Positions 8 to 20,999 of a stretch of 64,000 nucleotides of DNA are shown here, piece after piece. The stretch lies in NCBI GenBank assembly GCA_947448735.1, contig CANFOS010000011.1, positions 28,874 through 92,873 of the forward strand, given 5' to 3'. The notes below the pieces were generated by a model. It was not told the origin of the DNA. It made no database searches and saw nothing but the letters and a program-made list of their open reading frames with translations. Source of the stretch: Comamonadaceae bacterium (GTDB lineage: Bacteria > Pseudomonadota > Gammaproteobacteria > Burkholderiales > Burkholderiaceae_C). Position numbers and translations under genes: made by a program. The stretch's first letter is position 1, and each line of letters opens with the position of its first letter.

Positions 8-3000
8 TTAGGCAGCCGGCTTGTCAAAGGGCAGTTCCACCGCACGCAAGTCGCGGCGGGTTTCAACCAGCACCAACGGACCTTCATTGGACACCATCAC
101 GGGTGCTCGCTCACGCGGCACATGTGCCGGTTTGGCCTCGGCAGCAATGGCGGCCTGCGCCTCTGCTATCTTGCCCGCGTCCGAGTTGATCCACTGAAGG
201 CCGGAGCCCTGTGCGACCTGAACCAGGTCTTGCAAGGGCAAGTCATAAGCCTTAACCTTGGGCAGGCCGCTGGCAGCCGATGCAAGGGCTGGCGAAGGCG
301 AGGGTGCGGGCGTGCTTTGGGGTGTGTGTGCTGGCACTGCAGGCAGAGCCGCATCAGCGGTGACAATAGCCGAGCCAACTGGCGCTGTAGATGCTACAAA
401 TTCAGGAGCTACTGGCGCGGGAATTTGCTGGTCTGCAGCCTCATTTGATGCCTGGTGTTCAGTCAAGGCAGCGGCCTCAGCACCGGTTTCACTGCGCTCA
501 GAACCTTCAGCGCGCTCGCGGCGATCGCGGCCGTAACGGTCACGGCTGCGGCGCTCGCGTGGCGCACGTTGTGGATTGGCCTGATCACCCGTTGTGTTGC
601 CTTCAGCAGGGGCATGAACGTCTCTGCTGACGGATGGCTCAGCCGGCGCGTCACCCGATGGCTGGCGATCTTCACGCGGCGCATCTTGAGAGTCGGTGCG
701 TGACTCTGCGCGTGGCTCACCACGGCGGTCATTTCGGCGACCGCGATCGCCACGCTCTCGGCGCGGCGCTTCCTGGCCCGCCGCGTCTGCTGCCCCGCCA
801 CCCATGGCGGCAGCCATGGCGGCTTTGTTGGCCAGTGCAATGTCTTGCTCGGTGGCATCCGCCGATGGGCGCGGCTCGTTGCTTCGCTCACCGCGTTCAC
901 GGCGTGGACGCTCCTGGCGACCGCCTTCGCGTGGCTCACGCGGCTCGCGCGGTGGGCGCGGCTCGCGTGGCTCCTGACCTTCAGCGCGTTGTTCGCCGCG
1001 CTGGTCATTGCGTGGTTCACCGCGCGGCTCAGCGCCCCGCGCATCAGGACCACGTTCCCGGCGCTCGTTGCTTCTACCCTCACCCCGGCCCTCGCCGCGA
1101 CCTTCCGAACGGTCACCGCGCTCGCCTCTGGCGCGGCCGCCACGGCGGCCATCACGGCCACCGCGTTCGCCGCGGCCATCGCGGGCAGCGTCACGGCGTG
1201 CGTCGCCTTCACGGTCATCTTTTTTCACATCACCGGCCGGCGCGGCGATCGGTTTGGCGGGCTCATCAGCGCCGCCAAACAAAGCTTTGAGCCAGCCGAA
1301 AAATCCCTTTTCCGCTGGCGCTACTTGTGCCGGTGTTGCAGCGGGTGCTGCCTTGGCGGCCACGTCAGGTTTGGCTTCAGCCTTGACCGGGGCGGCAGGT
1401 GCCAGGGGTTCGTGGGCATCTGGCAACACGCCCTTGATCACAGGCTCTTGCTTGTTGTGCTTTTCCTGGCTGCGACGGGTGACCAGCGTCGGGTCTTCCA
1501 TTTCTTCGGCCATCTTGTAGCTGGCTTCGATGTTGTCCAGGCGCGGGTCGTCGTGCTTCAGGCGTTCCAGGCGGTAGTTCGGTGTTTCCAGCGTTTTGTT
1601 TGGCACCAGCAGCACGTTGATGCGCTGCTTCATTTCGATTTTGCTGATTTCTGAGCGTTTTTCATTCAACAAGAAAGACGCCACATCCACCGGCACCTGG
1701 CACAACACCGAGGCCGTGCTGTCTTTGAGGGACTCTTCCTGAATGATCCGCAAGATCTGCAAGGCAGAGCTTTCGGTGTCGCGGATATGGCCAGAGCCAC
1801 CGCAACGCGGGCAGGGGATGGACGCGCCTTCGCTCAGCGTAGGGCGCAGGCGCTGGCGGCTCATCTCCATCAGGCCAAACTTGCTGATGGTGCCGAACTG
1901 GACTCTGGCGCGGTCTTGGCGCAGTGCATCACGCAGGCGGTTTTCAACATCGCGGCGGTTGCGTGACTCTTCCATATCAATAAAGTCAATCACCACCAGG
2001 CCGCCCAGGTCACGCAGGCGCATCTGGCGGGCCACTTCGTCAGCGGCTTCCAGGTTGGTTCGGGTCGCGGTTTCCTCAATGTCGCCGCCCTTGATAGCGC
2101 GCGCCGAGTTGACGTCGACGCTGACCAGCGCCTCGGTCTGGTCAATCACGATGGCGCCGCCAGACGGCAACTGCACGGTGCGGGCATAGGCCGACTCGAT
2201 CTGGTGCTCGATCTGGAAACGGCTGAACAGCGGTGCGTCGTCGCGGTAACGCTTGACGCGGTGCTCATGCTCGGGCATCACATGCGCCATGAACTGCTTG
2301 GCCTGCTCGTACACGTCGTCGGTGTCAAACAAGATGTCGCCGATGTCGCTGTTGAAGTAATCGCGAATCGCACGGATGACCAGGCTGGATTCCTGATAAA
2401 TCAGGAACGCGCCCTTGCCGCCCTTGCCGGCGCCTTCAATGGCCGTCCAGAGCTTGATCAGGTAGTTCAGGTCCCACTGCAGTTCTGGGGCGCTGCGGCC
2501 AATGCCGGCGGTTCGGGCAATGATGCTGGAGCCCTGCGGGTACTCCAGCTGGTCCATGTTTTCTTTCAGCTCGGCCCGGTCTTCGCCCTCGATACGGCGG
2601 CTCACGCCACCACCGCGCGGGTTGTTGGGCATCAGCACCACATAGCGGCCGGCCAGCGATACAAAGGTCGTCAGGGCTGCACCCTTGTTGCCGCGCTCTT
2701 CTTTTTCGACCTGAACCATCAGTTCCTGGCCCTCGCGGATCACATCATTGATGCGGGCCTGGCTGACCGACACACCTGGTGCAAAGTAGTTGCGCGAGAT
2801 TTCCTTGAACGGCAAAAAGCCGTGGCGGTCTTCGCCGTAATCCACAAAACAGGCTTCCAGCGATGGCTCAACCCGGGTCACCACCGCTTTGTAGATGTTT
2901 CCTTTGCGCTGTTCGCGCCCTTCAATTTCAATTTCGTAGTCGAGGAGTTTTTGTCCGTCAACAATCGCCAAACGGCGCTCTTCTGCCTGGGTGGCATTGA

Positions 3001-3016
3001 TCAGCATGCGTTTCAT
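8..3016 (-). CDS. rne: Ribonuclease E
   Basis: N-terminal [22 protein letters not shown]1 domain, DVNSAR and DFIDM catalytic motifs, CPRC Zn-link, long Arg/Glu-rich disordered tail; divergent from rluC. Confidence 0.98.
392..434 (+). repeat. 43-bp fixed-spacing element, copy inside rne
   Basis: TGCTAC-AAATTCA-GGAGC-N20-GGTCT. Confidence 0.8.
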
Positions 3017-13238: not shown

Positions 13239-13250
13239 TTGGAGATTTTG

Positions 13251-14210
13251 TTGAAACCATTTGCTTTTGTATTTCCGGGTCAAGGCTCTCAATCGGTCGG
13301 TATGTTGGATGCTTGGGGCGATCACCCTGCGGTCGCCCAAACATTGCAAGAGGCATCTGATGCGCTGGGGCAGGATGTGAGCCGATTGATTAAAGAGGGC
13401 CCCAAAGAAGAGCTGGCGCTGACGACCAATACGCAGCCCGTGATGTTGGTGGCGGGTGTTGCGGCTTACCGGGTGTGGATGGCCGAGGCAGGTGTGGCGC
13501 CGGCTTGCGTTGCCGGGCATTCGCTTGGCGAATACGCAGCTTTGGTGGCCAGCGGCGCATTGACATTGACGCAAGCCGCGCCGCTGGTGCGCTTTAGGGC
13601 CCAGGCCATGCAAGACGCCGTGCCCGTAGGCGCAGGTGCGATGGCAGCCATTTTGGGTTTGGATGCTTCGAAAATAATAGCTGTTTGCGCAGGTATTACT
13701 GGGGCTACCGCAGAGTTTGGTTTGCAAAATGGCGAAGTGGTGGAGGCTGTTAATTTCAACGATCCGCTGCAAACCGTGATTGCAGGCAGCAAGGCCGCCG
13801 TTGACAAGGCCTGCGAACTGCTCAAAGCCGAAGGTGCCAAACGCGCCTTGCTGCTTCAGGTCTCCGCGCCATTTCACTCCAGCCTGATGAAGCCCGCTGC
13901 CGAAAAGCTTCAAGAAAAACTGGCGCAAACCTCCTTCGCCGCCCTGCAGATTCCGCTGATCAACAATATTGACGTGGCGGTGCAAACCGATGCAGCGGGG
14001 ATTCGCGATGCCTTGTACCGCCAGGCTTTTGGTGCTGTGCGCTGGGTGGAATGTGTCCAGGCCATGAAAGCACGTGGTGTCAGCCATGTTGTTGAATGTG
14101 GGCCTGGCAAAGTACTGGCGGGTCTGGTCAAGAGAATCGATGCCGACTTGACAGGAGCCCCTTTGTTTGACCCCGCCTCCATGGCTCAAGTGAAAGAATT
14201 GCTGGTATGA
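13251..14210 (+). CDS. fabD: Malonyl-CoA:ACP transacylase
   Basis: FVFPGQGSQ, GHSLGEY, VSAPFHS; TTG start with GGAG RBS. Confidence 0.98.
   Translation: MKPFAFVFPGQGSQSVGMLDAWGDHPAVAQTLQEASDALGQDVSRLIKEGPKEELALTTNTQPVMLVAGVAAYRVWMAEAGVAPACVAGHSLGEYAALVASGALTLTQAAPLVRFRAQAMQDAVPVGAGAMAAILGLDASKIIAVCAGITGATAEFGLQNGEVVEAVNFNDPLQTVIAGSKAAVDKACELLKAEGAKRALLLQVSAPFHSSLMKPAAEKLQEKLAQTSFAALQIPLINNIDVAVQTDAAGIRDALYRQAFGAVRWVECVQAMKARGVSHVVECGPGKVLAGLVKRIDADLTGAPLFDPASMAQVKELLV
13664..13706 (+). repeat. 43-bp element, inside fabD
   Basis: TGCTTC-GAAAATA-ATAGC-N20-GGGCT. Confidence 0.8.
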
Positions 14211-16676: not shown

Positions 16677-17135
16677 TTGAACCACAACGCTCCGCCCGTC
16701 ACTTATCCGCTGAGGCGCTCGCCCGTGCAGGCGCTGATTTATCTGGGGTTGTGGTTTGCAGTACTCGCTGTGGTGGTCCGCTGGATCTGGCTCAGCCCCA
16801 ACAGCAACATGGCTTTGCTTCTTGGTATCGGCGCGTTGGCAGCCTCTAGCCTGGCCGGTATTTTTGGCATGAAATTCTCACCTATTGGCCAGCTCGTTTG
16901 GGACGGCCAACGCTGGCATTGGGAGAGCCTGGCCTATCAGGTGGGTACGGCAGAGTACGAGGTATTTGTTGCTGCTGATTTTCAGCATATTGTCTTGCTG
17001 CACATCAAGAACCATGCAAACGCCAAGCTCTGGCTTTGGGTTGAACGTGACATTTTTCCCGAGCGTTGGCTGGATTTGCGACGCGCTATTTACTCTCCCC
17101 ACCGGACTGCCGCTGATCTGATTGCCCCGGCATGA
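16677..17135 (+). CDS. Small membrane protein, YgfX/CptA-like
   Basis: Two TM helices then WDGQRWHW and WLDLRRAI motifs; ATGA overlap with rpoE; family call from memory. Confidence 0.6.
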   Translation: MNHNAPPVTYPLRRSPVQALIYLGLWFAVLAVVVRWIWLSPNSNMALLLGIGALAASSLAGIFGMKFSPIGQLVWDGQRWHWESLAYQVGTAEYEVFVAADFQHIVLLHIKNHANAKLWLWVERDIFPERWLDLRRAIYSPHRTAADLIAPA

Positions 17136-17767
17136 CCGACGTTCGTGCACAGTCTCCGGCTGATGCATCGCCTGACAGTGATGCTTTGCTGGTTGAGCGA
17201 ACGGTCGCCGGAGATCAAAAAGCATTTGAGTTGCTGGTCATCAAATACCAGCGGCGCATTCAACGCCTGATTGGCCGCATGGTGCGCGATGTTGATTTGG
17301 TCGAAGACATCGCCCAGGAAACCTTTATCCGGGCTTACCGGGCGCTGGCGCAGTTTCGGGGCGAGGCGCAGTTCTACACCTGGTTGTACCGGATTGCCAT
17401 CAATACGGCAAAAAAAGCCCTGATGGACCTGAAACGAAACCCGACGGTTTCGGAAAATTCTTTCAAATCTGACGATGAAGATGAAACTTCGCACCTCAAG
17501 AATGAACTAACCAGTTCAGAGACGCCTGACGCCGTGCTGGCCAGCAAGGAGATAGCACAAATCATTAACACGGCGCTTGAAGCCTTGCCTGAAGATTTGC
17601 GGATGGCAGTGACGCTGCGCGAAATTGAAGGTCTGAGTTACGAGGAAATAGCCGAAACCATGAACTGCCCGATCGGCACCGTACGATCCCGGATTTTCCG
17701 GGCCCGAGAGGCTATTTCTCAAAAGGTCAAGCCTTTGCTTGAAAACCAGGCAGGCAAGCGCTGGTAA
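17132..17767 (+). CDS. rpoE: ECF sigma factor RpoE (sigma24)
   Basis: DIAQETFIRAYRAL, FYTWLYRIA, CPIGTVRSRIFRARE. Confidence 0.97.
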   Translation: MTDVRAQSPADASPDSDALLVERTVAGDQKAFELLVIKYQRRIQRLIGRMVRDVDLVEDIAQETFIRAYRALAQFRGEAQFYTWLYRIAINTAKKALMDLKRNPTVSENSFKSDDEDETSHLKNELTSSETPDAVLASKEIAQIINTALEALPEDLRMAVTLREIEGLSYEEIAETMNCPIGTVRSRIFRAREAISQKVKPLLENQAGKRW

Positions 17768-17813: not shown

Positions 17814-18410
17814 ATGACAACACAAGACAGCTCCGGCCACGAAATGCTTTCCGCCCTTTTTGACGGACAGGAAGTCTCTGATAGCGCTCTTGCAAACTTG
17901 CCGTTTGCAGGCGCGCATGGTGTGCGCAGTGACTGGAACTGTTACCACGTGATTGGCCAAGCGCTGCGGAGCTCGCCGTCTGCGGGAGTTATTGGGGCGG
18001 ATCCAGCATTTCTGCAGCGTCTCAGTACGCGCTTGAATCATGAGGTTATTGAGCCGCTTGCCCCACCGGCGGTCATGGCGGTTGGCACAGTAGCCGTGTC
18101 AGCAGTTCAAGCTGCCAACGACCAGCAATTCCGCTGGAAGCTGCTGGCCGGCTTCGCCAGCCTGGGTGCTGTTGCTGTATTGGCTTGGACGCTGACAGGA
18201 TCGTCGATGGGCACTTCTTTGCCGCAGATGGCTCAAGACACCAGGGCCGCAACCTTGGTAACAGCTTTGCCAGAGGGGCCGATGATTCGAGACGCAAGGC
18301 TTGAGGAGCTGCTTTCTGCGCACAAGCAGATGGGTGCAAGCACCTTGCAGGTGCCTTCAGGTTTTGTGCGCCATGCTGGTTTTGAAGCGCCCCTTTCATC
18401 GGGTCGGTGA
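17814..18410 (+). CDS. rseA: Anti-sigma factor RseA/MucA
   Basis: LSALFDG, WNCYHVIGQALR, TM helix; follows rpoE. Confidence 0.9.
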   Translation: MTTQDSSGHEMLSALFDGQEVSDSALANLPFAGAHGVRSDWNCYHVIGQALRSSPSAGVIGADPAFLQRLSTRLNHEVIEPLAPPAVMAVGTVAVSAVQAANDQQFRWKLLAGFASLGAVAVLAWTLTGSSMGTSLPQMAQDTRAATLVTALPEGPMIRDARLEELLSAHKQMGASTLQVPSGFVRHAGFEAPLSSGR

Positions 18411-18447
18411 AACTGCGTCAAAGCCGCCCCAACGTTATTGAAAATCC

Positions 18448-19479
18448 ATGTTTTACCGGTCATTTATTCCTCTAGCCCTAGTATTATCGATGCTAGTAGC
18501 TCCTGAATTTGTAGCATCCCAAACTCTCGGCTCGAACCCCTCCGTCGCTGCCATCGCCACGGTTCAGGACGCCAAAGACCTCAATGATTGGCTGCGCCGC
18601 ATGCATGAGGCTTCCAAAAACCGCGCCTATATCGGGACTTATGTGGTTTCCTCGGGCGGTCAATTGCAAAGCGCAAAAATCTGGCACGTCTGTGAGGCGG
18701 GGCAGCAAACCGAACGAGTCGAAACCCTGACGGGCGCGCCGCGTTCAACTTTTCGGCACAACGAGCAGGTCGTGACTTTTCTGCCTGACCAAAAGCTGGT
18801 ACGCCATGAAAAACGTGAAGCGTTGAATTCGTTTCCCGAGATTGTTCAGTCTGCCGATCACCGCATTTCTGACTTTTATAAACTCAAACACGAAGGCACA
18901 GAGCGCGTTGCGGGGGTGGATGCCGACGTTGCTGTTCTGGTGTCCAAAGATGCGATGCGCTTTGGCTACCGTGTCTGGACCGAGCAGAAAAAAGGCCTGG
19001 TGGTGAAATTGCAGACGCTCGATGTCGATGGCCGGGTTCTTGAGCAGGCTGCGTTTTCCGAGCTTCTGATGGACGCGCCTGTGAAGATGGACAAACTGAT
19101 ACAGATGATGGGCAAGGTGGACGGCTTGCGCGTGGAACACCCCGCGGTGGTCAAGACTACAGCCAGCGCACAGGGCTGGTATTTGCCTTCATCGGTTGCT
19201 GGATTCAAACCCATGAGTTGCTACAAGCGGTCTGCTTCGGCGGGTGCTGCCTCCCTTGCCGAAGACTCCATGCACTGGGTGTTTTCTGATGGGCTGGCAT
19301 CGGTGTCGCTGTTTGTGGAGTCTTACGACCGCCAGCGTCACAGCAAAGAGTCCGGCATGTCCATGGGAGCAACGCATACCCTGACGCGGCACATCGGCAG
19401 TTACTGGTTGACGGCCATGGGTGAGGTGCCGATGGCCACCCTCAAGCAGTTTGCCAATGGCCTTGAACGTAAAAAATAG
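18448..19479 (+). CDS. rseB: RseB/MucB periplasmic regulator
   Basis: Signal peptide, WVFSDGLASVSLFVE, GEVP motifs. Confidence 0.92.
   Translation: MFYRSFIPLALVLSMLVAPEFVASQTLGSNPSVAAIATVQDAKDLNDWLRRMHEASKNRAYIGTYVVSSGGQLQSAKIWHVCEAGQQTERVETLTGAPRSTFRHNEQVVTFLPDQKLVRHEKREALNSFPEIVQSADHRISDFYKLKHEGTERVAGVDADVAVLVSKDAMRFGYRVWTEQKKGLVVKLQTLDVDGRVLEQAAFSELLMDAPVKMDKLIQMMGKVDGLRVEHPAVVKTTASAQGWYLPSSVAGFKPMSCYKRSASAGAASLAEDSMHWVFSDGLASVSLFVESYDRQRHSKESGMSMGATHTLTRHIGSYWLTAMGEVPMATLKQFANGLERKK
18474..18516 (-). repeat. 43-bp element, inside rseB signal peptide
   Basis: TGCTAC-AAATTCA-GGAGC-N20-GGGCT. Confidence 0.85.
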
Positions 19480-19514: not shown

Positions 19515-20999
19515 ATGATGTTTGTTCCCCTGAAAAATTCATGGCGCTCCAGCGTTGCCGTGATGTCCTTATGTGCCGCTGCCCTGTTGGCGGCAACACC
19601 GGCCCCCTCGGCTTGGGCACAAAACCGGACGCTGCCAGACTTCACCGATCTGGTCGAGCAGGTAGGGCCGTCAGTGGTCAACATTCGCACCTCCGAAAAG
19701 GTCAAGGCGGCTGCGGCTGGTGGTGGCGGCGCGGATGAGCAGATGCTCGAATTCTTTCGCCGGTTTGGTATTCCTGTCCCTCCCAATATGGCACCCAACA
19801 CGCCGCGTGGCCCCCGCTCTGAGCGTTCACCCGCGCCTCAGGAGGATGCTCAGCCGCGTGGTGTGGGATCCGGTTTTATCCTGACATCTGACGGTTTTGT
19901 GATGACCAACGCCCACGTTGTCGAGGGTGCCGACGAGGTCATCGTGACGCTCACTGACAACCGCGAATACAAGGCCAAAATCATCGGTGCCGACAAGCGT
20001 ACCGACGTTGCTGTTGTGAAGATCGAAGCCGCAGGCCTGCAGGCCGTCAAAATTGGTGACTCCAATCGCCTGAAAGTCGGTGAGTGGGTCATGGCGATTG
20101 GTTCGCCGTTCGGCCTGGAGAACACCGTCACTGCCGGCATCGTCAGCGCCAAACAGCGCGACACGGGTGACTATCTTCCTTTTATCCAGACTGACGTGGC
20201 GATCAACCCCGGTAATTCTGGCGGTCCGCTGATCAACATGCGCGGCGAGGTGGTGGGCATCAACAGCCAAATCTATTCACGCTCAGGTGGTTTTCAAGGC
20301 ATTTCATTTGCCATACCCATGGATGAAGCCACACGGGTGTCAGACCAGTTGCGAACTTCCGGGAAGGTCACGCGTGGGCGCATCGGCGTTCAGATTGACC
20401 AGGTGAGTAAAGAAGTCGCTGAGTCGATTGGTCTTGGCAGAGCGCAGGGTGCGCTGGTCAGGGGCGTCGAGGCCGGAGCACCCGCAGACAAAGCAGGCGT
20501 TGAAGCCGGCGACATCATCACGAAATTTGACGGTAAGACGATCGAAAAATCAACGGACCTGCCCCGCTTGGTGGGCAACGTCAAACCCGGTACCAAATCC
20601 GTGGTGACGGTGTTCAGGCGTGGTGCGAGCAAAGATTTGTCAGTCGTCGTCGCCGAAGTAGAAGCTGACAAGCCCGTGCGCAAATCGTCCGCTGCAGAGC
20701 CCAAACCTCAGGCGGCTGGTCCCGCTCAAGTGTTGGGTCTGGCTGTGAGCGAAGTCACCGATGCTCAAAAGAAAGAACTCAAAATCAAGGGTGGTGTGAA
20801 GATTGACACTGCTGAAGGCGCTGCTTCAAGGGCAGGCTTGCGTGAGGGGGACGTGATCATCGCCATTTCCAATATCGAGGTCACCAATGTCAAGGAGTTT
20901 GAAGCGGCAGTGGCCAAGATGGACAAGACCAAAGCCGCCAATGTCCTGTTCAGGCGAGGCGATCTGGCGCAATATGTGTTGATCCGCCCGACGCGTTAA
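19515..20999 (+). CDS. degP: DegP/MucD serine endoprotease with two PDZ domains
   Basis: GSGFI, TNAHVV, INPGNSGGPL. Confidence 0.95.
   Translation: MMFVPLKNSWRSSVAVMSLCAAALLAATPAPSAWAQNRTLPDFTDLVEQVGPSVVNIRTSEKVKAAAAGGGGADEQMLEFFRRFGIPVPPNMAPNTPRGPRSERSPAPQEDAQPRGVGSGFILTSDGFVMTNAHVVEGADEVIVTLTDNREYKAKIIGADKRTDVAVVKIEAAGLQAVKIGDSNRLKVGEWVMAIGSPFGLENTVTAGIVSAKQRDTGDYLPFIQTDVAINPGNSGGPLINMRGEVVGINSQIYSRSGGFQGISFAIPMDEATRVSDQLRTSGKVTRGRIGVQIDQVSKEVAESIGLGRAQGALVRGVEAGAPADKAGVEAGDIITKFDGKTIEKSTDLPRLVGNVKPGTKSVVTVFRRGASKDLSVVVAEVEADKPVRKSSAAEPKPQAAGPAQVLGLAVSEVTDAQKKELKIKGGVKIDTAEGAASRAGLREGDVIIAISNIEVTNVKEFEAAVAKMDKTKAANVLFRRGDLAQYVLIRPTR

Follow-up and report, generated by a model that had tools for sequence, protein, structure and literature searches.

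A short dispersed repeat of the Comamonadaceae as the probable source of the predicted signal peptide of RseB

The gene rseB (mucB) lies at 18448..19479 on the forward strand of a 64,000-nucleotide stretch of Comamonadaceae bacterium contig CANFOS010000011.1 (assembly GCA_947448735.1). This whole stretch is called the window here, and coordinates given without a contig refer to it. The gene encodes the stress sensor RseB, a protein of 343 residues, and is the third gene of an rpoE-rseA-rseB-degP cluster. Its first 24 codons are probably an old, domesticated, in-frame copy of a short repeat that is dispersed through the genome, and a 24-nucleotide (nt) identity between this copy and another one in rne, the gene for RNase E, would then be mostly inherited and not the result of recent gene conversion. 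The genome assembly has a size of 3.83 Mb and a G+C content of 57.7%, and its genus appears to be Polaromonas, judging from the relatives of its RseB. Below, G000 is the genome analyzed here, other G numbers are compared genomes, and L numbers are individual loci.

The repeat was collected with nhmmer, iterated from six intergenic seeds, which gave about 470 copies of a 49-nt core. Profiles of the flanks show that the unit continues 5' through a TTTTAGG..TCAAAT box, for a total of about 66-68 nt. The family profile was built solely from 142 intergenic copies, and the rseB and rne copies are thus not in it. Of its 502 matches in the genome, 407 score at least 20 bits, while the reversed genome gives a single match of 8.9 bits. 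With about 470-500 copies in 3.83 Mb, the density is one per ~8 kb. The unit is a series of boxes at fixed spacing, TTTTAGG / TCAAAT / GGCCTnnAGGCCAAT / AGCT / RTAGC, separated by AT-rich spacers; 80 strong intergenic copies align without a gap, and the commonest variant in the family is GCTCCTGAA. Copies sit mostly just after stop codons. In 109 of 166 intergenic cases, a gene on the opposite strand has its stop codon within 30 nt of the ATAGC end, and in 46 of 118 this end lies upstream of a start codon by at most 30 nt. With a sequence-only model, the repeat is detected in the majority of the Polaromonas tested and also in several further genera of Comamonadaceae; it is nearly or wholly absent from 6 of the 30 genomes searched, with at most 150 candidates scored per genome.

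Mutual information and alifold analyses over 222 full-length copies gave no base-pair covariation and no structure, with no Watson-Crick pair among the top pairs, and an RNA fold of 18436-18530 has nothing beyond its shuffles (z = -0.24). The idea of a two-hairpin RNA was dropped because the copies do not covary and the rseB 5' RNA is no more structured than shuffled sequence. The repeat variants GCTCC..GGAGC, GCTAT..ATAGC and GCTAC..GTAGC exist, and a weak stem of 4-5 bp is possible. A search of Rfam gives no match in the window at its gathering thresholds and, for the surroundings of a strong copy, no meaningful one at E<=1.

The rseB copy is found at 18450..18517 on the forward strand, sense and in frame, within one base of the span (18451-18518) proposed in a first-pass annotation of this DNA. 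It scores 34.2 bits against the intergenic-copy profile (E 5e-8 for the genome), matching profile positions 4-71 with no indel over 68 nt. The earlier profile of the 49-nt core scored 18469-18515 at 27.7 bits. The boxes appear in the copy as TTTTA (18451-18455), TCA, CCTCTAGCCC, AGCT and GTAGC, and the weakest portion is box A (+5.9 position weight matrix units). The G+C content of the segment is 37-40%, against 58% for the genome.

The repeat makes up codons 2-23 of rseB, leaving outside it only the initiator Met and the -1 residue of the signal. Codons 1-24 (18448..18519, forward strand) encode a predicted signal peptide with the layout MFYR / SFIPLALVLSMLVAP / EFVAS|Q, in which Arg4 is in the n-region, the hydrophobic core runs from F6 to P20, V is at -3 and S at -1, and the putative cleavage is between S24 and Q25 (18519|18520). 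By its charged n-region, core, and small residues at -3 and -1, RseB 1-24 looks like a Sec-type signal for signal peptidase I. The extent of the profile match agrees with the earlier proposal that the repeat encodes the hydrophobic core and cleavage region of RseB. A doubt raised at the same time, that the true start might lie downstream of the element, does not hold. Upstream of ATG 18448 the reading frame has just two more codons, and this ATG is both the first possible start and the sole one conserved in sister genomes. The next in-frame start, Met15, would remove the hydrophobic core, and this residue is V or A in the sister genomes. The Pfam MucB_RseB domains begin well inside the protein (N domain PF03888, residues 46-221, 190 bits; C domain PF17188, residues 239-339, 83 bits), and the solved MucB/RseB chains in the PDB align only from residues 43-49 (MucB match E 2e-17), so that residues 1-24 and a linker of ~21 residues precede the RseB fold. 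The identity of the gene as MucB/RseB is given by the presence of both domains and of the rpoE-rseA-rseB-degP neighborhood.

The orthologues of rseB in 20 genus-level genomes and 80 further Polaromonas records have the same 24-residue signal, M-N-F-K-x-F-x-L-L-A-L-...-A-[TM]-N-[FY]-V-A-A-Q, which finishes in V-A-A|Q at the position equivalent to S24|Q25. Three sister genera (G064, G126 and G092) have a signal of the same type and length, and the remaining genera of the family have unrelated RseB signals of 23-24 residues. The profile score at the rseB site is 34 bits here, 20-27 bits in L002, L003, L045, L047, L053, L059, L093 and L095, and zero in the JS666 group; many orthologues match the profile in the last ~25 nt only. 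In the RseB tree the high scores gather in a well-supported clade with this genome, and full-length matches occur in separate branches (L045, L047, L053, L093, L095 and L015). The first-pass annotation suggested that a repeat had been co-opted as a functional signal peptide. Co-option is supported by these comparisons, not as an event of this genome but as an ancient, genus-wide one.

The 3' box of the repeat, GCT-N-GTAGC, is kept at synonymous sites in rseB. Among 66 distinct orthologous sequences, 50 have GCT as the Ala codon of the box, against 15% in the rest of rseB, and 48 of 57 have GTA as its Val codon, against 6.5% in the rest. The Ala codon after this Val is GCA or GCG in 57 of 66, against 42% elsewhere, as in the repeat profile, and the following Ala codon has no bias. 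Since the bias tracks the repeat profile by position, and not AT-rich or rare codons generally, it suggests that the DNA or RNA itself is under some constraint or drive. This conservation at the DNA level is the most interesting part of the case. One tentative explanation, possible though not one we would lean on, is that the ~66-nt unit is not selfish DNA but a genomic signal kept by the host and served by a reader, held by selection or biased conversion even within genes. The rseB 5' end would then have been dual-coded, as this signal and as a Sec peptide, since before Polaromonas diversified.

Two further rseB loci deserve mention. L126 (G115:C3:138600-139200) has what appears to be a separate full copy, at 20 bits with the core profile, in the rseB signal of another genus. 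The G115 signal, MLFGTLFFRPWK-APAQWNVAGAAIVLIV-FGALQNASA|Q, is ~13 residues longer than in other genera. As far as these sequences tell, the rseB 5' end appears to have acquired the repeat at least twice. L014 (G017:C345, at a contig edge) has an in-frame TAA in the rseB signal, ..ALAATN*IAAQ.., within GCAGCTACAAATTAAATAGCG, where the consensus is AATTAAATAGC. The gene may be a pseudogene, the stop may come from an assembly error, or the copy may have been driven back toward the consensus at the expense of the frame.

Copies within genes are not confined to rseB. Genes were called with a crude codon-usage finder of our own (3342 genes, 89% of the genome), and 181 of 469 core copies lie wholly within them; of the 407 copies that score at least 20 bits with the extended profile, 139, or about a third, do so. 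The frames of the 181 copies are unevenly used: 81 are sense/phase 1, 55 antisense/phase 0 and 21 antisense/phase 2, with 24 in the other three together. The rseB and rne copies are both in sense/phase 1 and therefore encode the same peptide. A peptide of the form [AV]APE.[IV]A occurs in 17 proteins, compared with 0-2 in shuffled proteins. The host proteins of the copies include Tex, LeuRS, TruB, PurL, the linker of lipoamide dehydrogenase, and GluQ-RS.

Tex (G000 C15:48809-49588, loci L140-L169) has a repeat-encoded insertion between GNGTASRE and SEAGASVYS, with a net gain of 24-27 residues. The insertion is polymorphic within the genus. It is present in G000, G022, G016, G004 and G005 and shorter (about 8-10 residues) in G014, G007, G003 and G021; Tex of G010, G001, G002 and G020 has a different segment of 6-10 extra residues, and the other Polaromonas have no insertion, nor do the outgroups, which represent the empty site.

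FabD (fabD, 13239..14210) has a copy at 13671-13730 of the window on the reverse strand, in an antisense frame and at 22.5 bits, which encodes ..SKIIAVCAGITGATAEFGLQN.. and adds 8-9 residues relative to solved homologues (GITGATAEFGLQNGE vs AS-AT--------G). The AVCA part of this copy aligns with native conserved residues, so the site is part insertion and part overlay. The copy in TruB (G000 C1:183128-184093, loci L201-L230; 65 nt, 42 bits) encodes ..MAVAQDLRAPAAIKIIV.. just before CSKGTYIR. The segment has 63 residues in nearly all Polaromonas (62 in G007) and 59 in most outgroups, a gain of 4. Across Polaromonas the repeat score of TruB goes from 42 bits to 0 at constant length, and the box retains GCT and a rare ATA codon. 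Overwriting without a change in length was considered as a strict rule and rejected: it holds for rseB, where the net change is 0, and fails for FabD and TruB.

The repeat may also supply protein ends. A protein of ~530 residues at G000 C3:247045 ends within a copy (..AIILIAARIRFHWAKARFDR*), which gives it a C-terminus and stop codon; the repeat consensus, read in antisense/phase 0, stays open up to a final TAA. Elsewhere in the genome, about seven further N-terminal copies resemble signal, lipoprotein or twin-arginine translocation (Tat) signals. These include G000 C8:86581, C4:137829, C23:9724, C2:202570 and C2:91377, mostly in an antisense frame, and they seem to encode the lipoprotein boxes LGAAC and LIAAC, a Tat-type MNRRLNRRHFIQ...FFIAAHA|Q, and Sec-type signals. 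Because of these look-alikes, use of the repeat as an export signal appears to be recurrent.

The history we favor would have a copy of the repeat entering rseB before Polaromonas radiated and replacing an earlier signal-coding segment at equal length. The length could have been preserved by an insertion in which the old segment was lost, or by overprinting in small steps. In the coding frame that the repeat uses most, the copy would provide the whole Sec signal after the Met, including the V-A-[AS]|Q site, and RseB would then be exported to the periplasm to act on RseA. Later the copy may have decayed unequally between lineages while the synonymous sites of the 3' box were kept. The tail of RNase E would contain a second old, conserved member of the sub-variant GCTCCTGAATTT, in the same frame, and the 24-nt identity would be a mostly inherited likeness that two C-to-T transitions lengthened. 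That the repeat can enter genes and signal peptides is argued by the gain of 24-27 residues in Tex, the longer rseB signal of G115 and the N-terminal copies just described.

Several points weigh against this history. The rseB signal has 24 residues and those of genera without the copy have 23-24; because there is no extra length, a simple 66-nt insertion misfits rseB, and replacement or later deletion must be assumed. The first-pass annotation had named orthologues with the same N-terminus and no motif as evidence that would tell against co-option, and such orthologues exist: those of the JS666 type have a homologous N-terminus with no detectable similarity to the repeat. This N-terminus may be read as a decayed old copy. 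The backbone of the RseB tree is unresolved, and an ancestral copy followed by decay is a matter of parsimony only. The export and the cleavage position are predicted from the -3/-1 rule and homology only, and the gene census is a crude one. The 5'-box score is ~9 bits higher in the G000 subclade than in its sisters, and the C-to-T changes in rseB and rne are each a step toward the other copy, which fits some homogenization. A gradual shift of a pre-existing signal peptide toward the repeat is, moreover, an alternative.

In this alternative, which we consider rather unlikely, a mutation-tolerant signal segment that was already present drifted in place by point substitutions into a motif favored genome-wide. 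The motif would be favored by a reading protein or by biased repair or uptake, like the uptake sequences of Pasteurellaceae and Neisseria. Such a course would account for the length of the signal, unchanged relative to genera without the motif, for the boxes kept at synonymous sites throughout the genus, and for TruB, where length is equal in all Polaromonas and the score still ranges from 42 bits to 0. The gap-free alignment of 80 intergenic copies suggests a recognition signal of fixed geometry, and the series of rseB states ATN, APN, APD and APE converges on GCTCCTGAA. The higher score of the 5' box in the derived G000 subclade points the same way, but the scores lean toward this genome, which is the source of the profile training. 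Against gradual drift stand the clear insertions in Tex (24-27 residues), the G115 rseB (~13) and FabD (8-9). To reach 34 bits over 68 nt by point mutation would also take many directed steps, and the full-length matches scattered on the tree are more simply explained by one old copy. A density of one copy per 8 kb and a length of 66 nt are unlike known uptake sequences, and we know of no reader or drive. An old copy, domesticated as the signal, is still the reading that we prefer.

RNase E is encoded by rne at 8..3016 on the reverse strand (open reading frame and translation, 1002 residues). Its repeat copy, at 390..453 on the same strand, falls in the disordered C-terminal part of the protein, and 453-390 scores 38.1 bits (E 3e-9) against the intergenic-copy profile. 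The element in rseB had been described as lying on the reverse strand; this is a naming convention, and relative to their genes both copies have the same orientation and frame. The run AGTAGCTCCTGAATTTGTAGCATC at 18495..18518 (forward strand), which encodes (L)VAPEFVAS, is the exact reverse complement of 390-413, as previously noted. The match grows to 27 nt with one mismatch. With up to three mismatches allowed, the 24-nt run has just two sites in the window and 0 in 100 shuffles. The heptapeptide VAPEFVA had been pointed out as common to both proteins, and a genome-wide count finds it in exactly two predicted proteins, RseB and RNase E. An exact run of at least 24 nt occurs in 4 of 109,746 copy pairs genome-wide, and rne/rseB is one of the four; the pair is unusually alike, yet at the end of a smooth distribution.

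The exchange of sequence between the two copies by gene conversion, the other suggestion of the first-pass annotation, is not borne out for recent times. Conversion between copies that are 18 kb apart and inverted would have made the 24-27-nt tract, and it would suit the rarity of such long runs and the two C-to-T transitions that lengthened the run to 24 nt, rseB GCA->GTA and rne CCT->TCT, each of which approaches the other copy. However, 12 other rne loci, from 11 other genomes, have the copy at the orthologous place, and the core of the copy is invariant in eight genomes of the clade, which read AGCTCCTGAATTT[AG]TAGC. The shared core AGCTCCTGAATTTGTAGC, or a one-base variant, is already in both rne and rseB of the sister genomes G022 and G016, whose rseB copies are each one base off the rne core. 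In G016 the two copies are identical at 22 of 23 positions, so the likeness predates the split of these species; in G022 the longest common run is 12 nt. The GTA of rseB is shared with the closest relative, L040, and so is not specific to this genome, while the TCT of rne occurs in G000 alone. Both changes are of the commonest kind of mutation, C to T, and with 24-27 nt the tract would be about as short as homologous recombination allows. In rseB, ACT AAT went to CCT GAA through the states ATN, APN, APD and APE, all of which survive in living lineages, and this argues for stepwise substitutions and not one conversion tract. These steps converge on the commonest family variant of the repeat. 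In their 5' halves, the copies in rne and rseB differ considerably. The higher 5'-box score of the G000 subclade was also considered as evidence of conversion and set aside as a mere hint, since a divergence of 12/31 nt in this segment is what the evolutionary distance would normally give and this genome served to train the profile. Recent conversion between rne and rseB thus appears very unlikely, and some slow homogenization toward the family consensus may have taken place.

A chance resemblance, in which an ordinary signal with AT-rich codons for A-T-N-F-V-A-A happens to give the GCTAC...GTAGC palindrome, would fit the many orthologues that match the profile only in their last ~25 nt and the general richness of signal peptides in rare codons, but it is hardly credible given a full-length, indel-free match at E 5e-8 by a copy outside the profile where the reversed genome reaches at most 8.9 bits, a segment of 37-40% G+C in a 58% G+C genome, and a codon bias that follows the profile by position, with the -3 Ala preferring GCA/GCG and the -2 Ala unbiased.

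The genes around rseB are those of a σE-type cluster on the forward strand. Upstream are an rpoE-like gene for an extracytoplasmic function (ECF) sigma factor with Sigma70_r2/r4 domains (17132..17767) and, directly before rseB, an rseA-like anti-sigma gene with an RseA_N domain (17814..18410). A degP/mucD-like gene for a periplasmic protease with Trypsin_2 and PDZ domains follows at 19515..20999. The 37-nt spacer between rseA and rseB (18411-18447) has no recognizable Shine-Dalgarno sequence before ATG 18448. The sister genomes carry AAAAACCC-ATG at the rseB start.

The usual view is that a signal peptide evolves as a hydrophobic N-terminus already in place drifts. In RseB a whole Sec signal, including the peptidase site, may instead be a translated dispersed repeat kept through the history of a genus. 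With the boxes frozen at synonymous sites, this would be a clean natural case of repeat DNA exapted as a targeting signal. The rseB copy also offers a handle on why an abundant motif of the Comamonadaceae stays conserved in place, in and out of genes. If a reader protein or biased repair does act on the motif, then rseB, rne and truB are sites where synonymous recoding could separate the role of the protein from that of the DNA. For annotation, genes like rseB should not be trimmed to a start downstream of the repeat.

Among known systems, REP, BIME and REPIN elements resemble the repeat in being short, abundant and mostly extragenic, just after stop codons. They differ in that the repeat has no stable hairpin or covariation, and REPs are not normally translated. 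The genome has a single-copy Y1_Tnp (RAYT-like) gene (G000 C3:75639-76337, reverse strand, 233 residues). Of 30 genomes, 29 have this gene, however common the repeat is in them; in 28 of the 29 genomes other than G000 it is conserved at 58-94% identity. A repeat copy flanks it in 5 of 29 genomes, and the copy ~100 nt upstream is found in G000 and G016 only. This pattern gives little reason to assume a link to RAYTs, since the Y1 transposase gene does not follow the abundance of the repeat and seldom has a copy beside it, and for the former reason no mobilizing enzyme can be named.

Uptake sequences, the uptake signal sequence (USS) of Pasteurellaceae and the DNA uptake sequence (DUS) of Neisseriaceae, have cores of 9-12 nt at about one per kb. 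Findlay and Redfield are said to have described, in 2009, USS in coding regions. The repeat is like them in its presence in coding DNA, its preferred frames, its use of tolerant segments, the synonymous sites kept, and the frequent absence of a length change. It differs in its length of 66 nt, its density of one per 8 kb, and its true insertions. We know of no link between the repeat and competence.

Two repeats have been described from relatives. BRE, the beta-proteobacterial repeat element of Bordetella (Hot et al. 2011, PMC3110155), is also reported from Comamonadaceae, among them Polaromonas sp. JS666, and part of its copies lie in coding sequences. It is ~90 bp long with 69% G+C and often tandem, and as a GC-rich tandem element it was rejected as the identity of the repeat and is a different family. 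In P. naphthalenivorans CJ2, a pair of spaced motifs, ATAGCT(N)22CAAAAG, has 125 copies, of which 101 are intergenic, 18 are in genes and 6 overlap a gene end (PMC5217627, Table 7); copies are often ~50 bp from genes and their function is given as unknown (PMC5217627). This pair has the same geometry as the other strand of the repeat, which suggests that they are equivalent, and its 2 exact matches in the present genome are both inside repeat copies. It is described as a statistical pair only (PMC5217627), with no 66-nt unit, frame bias, orthologous conservation or signal-peptide role. If the two are equivalent, the family is in print only as a statistical motif pair.

In its behavior the repeat appears closest to the Rickettsia palindromic elements (RPEs), although it is shorter and apparently unrelated. 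Going by the summary of Ogata et al. 2000 in a review of miniature inverted-repeat transposable elements (PMC10969869), RPEs are in-frame repeats of ~100-150 bp in housekeeping genes of Rickettsia. As they are summarized there, the likeness lies in short dispersed repeats with many in-frame copies in unrelated housekeeping genes, few frames used, tolerance in loops, linkers and tails, and conservation between species. The two are set apart by description: RPEs are elements of 100-150 bp in Rickettsia that add a peptide, whereas the present repeat is ~66 nt long, belongs to Comamonadaceae and lies mostly after stop codons. The rseB copy adds no length and encodes a whole signal peptide; the Tex copy does add, by 24-27 residues. 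A literature search gave no report of a signal-peptide role for RPEs and nothing useful on REP/RAYT in Comamonadaceae. What appears to be new in RseB is a complete predicted Sec signal peptide that derives from such a repeat and is kept genus-wide with its DNA boxes frozen.

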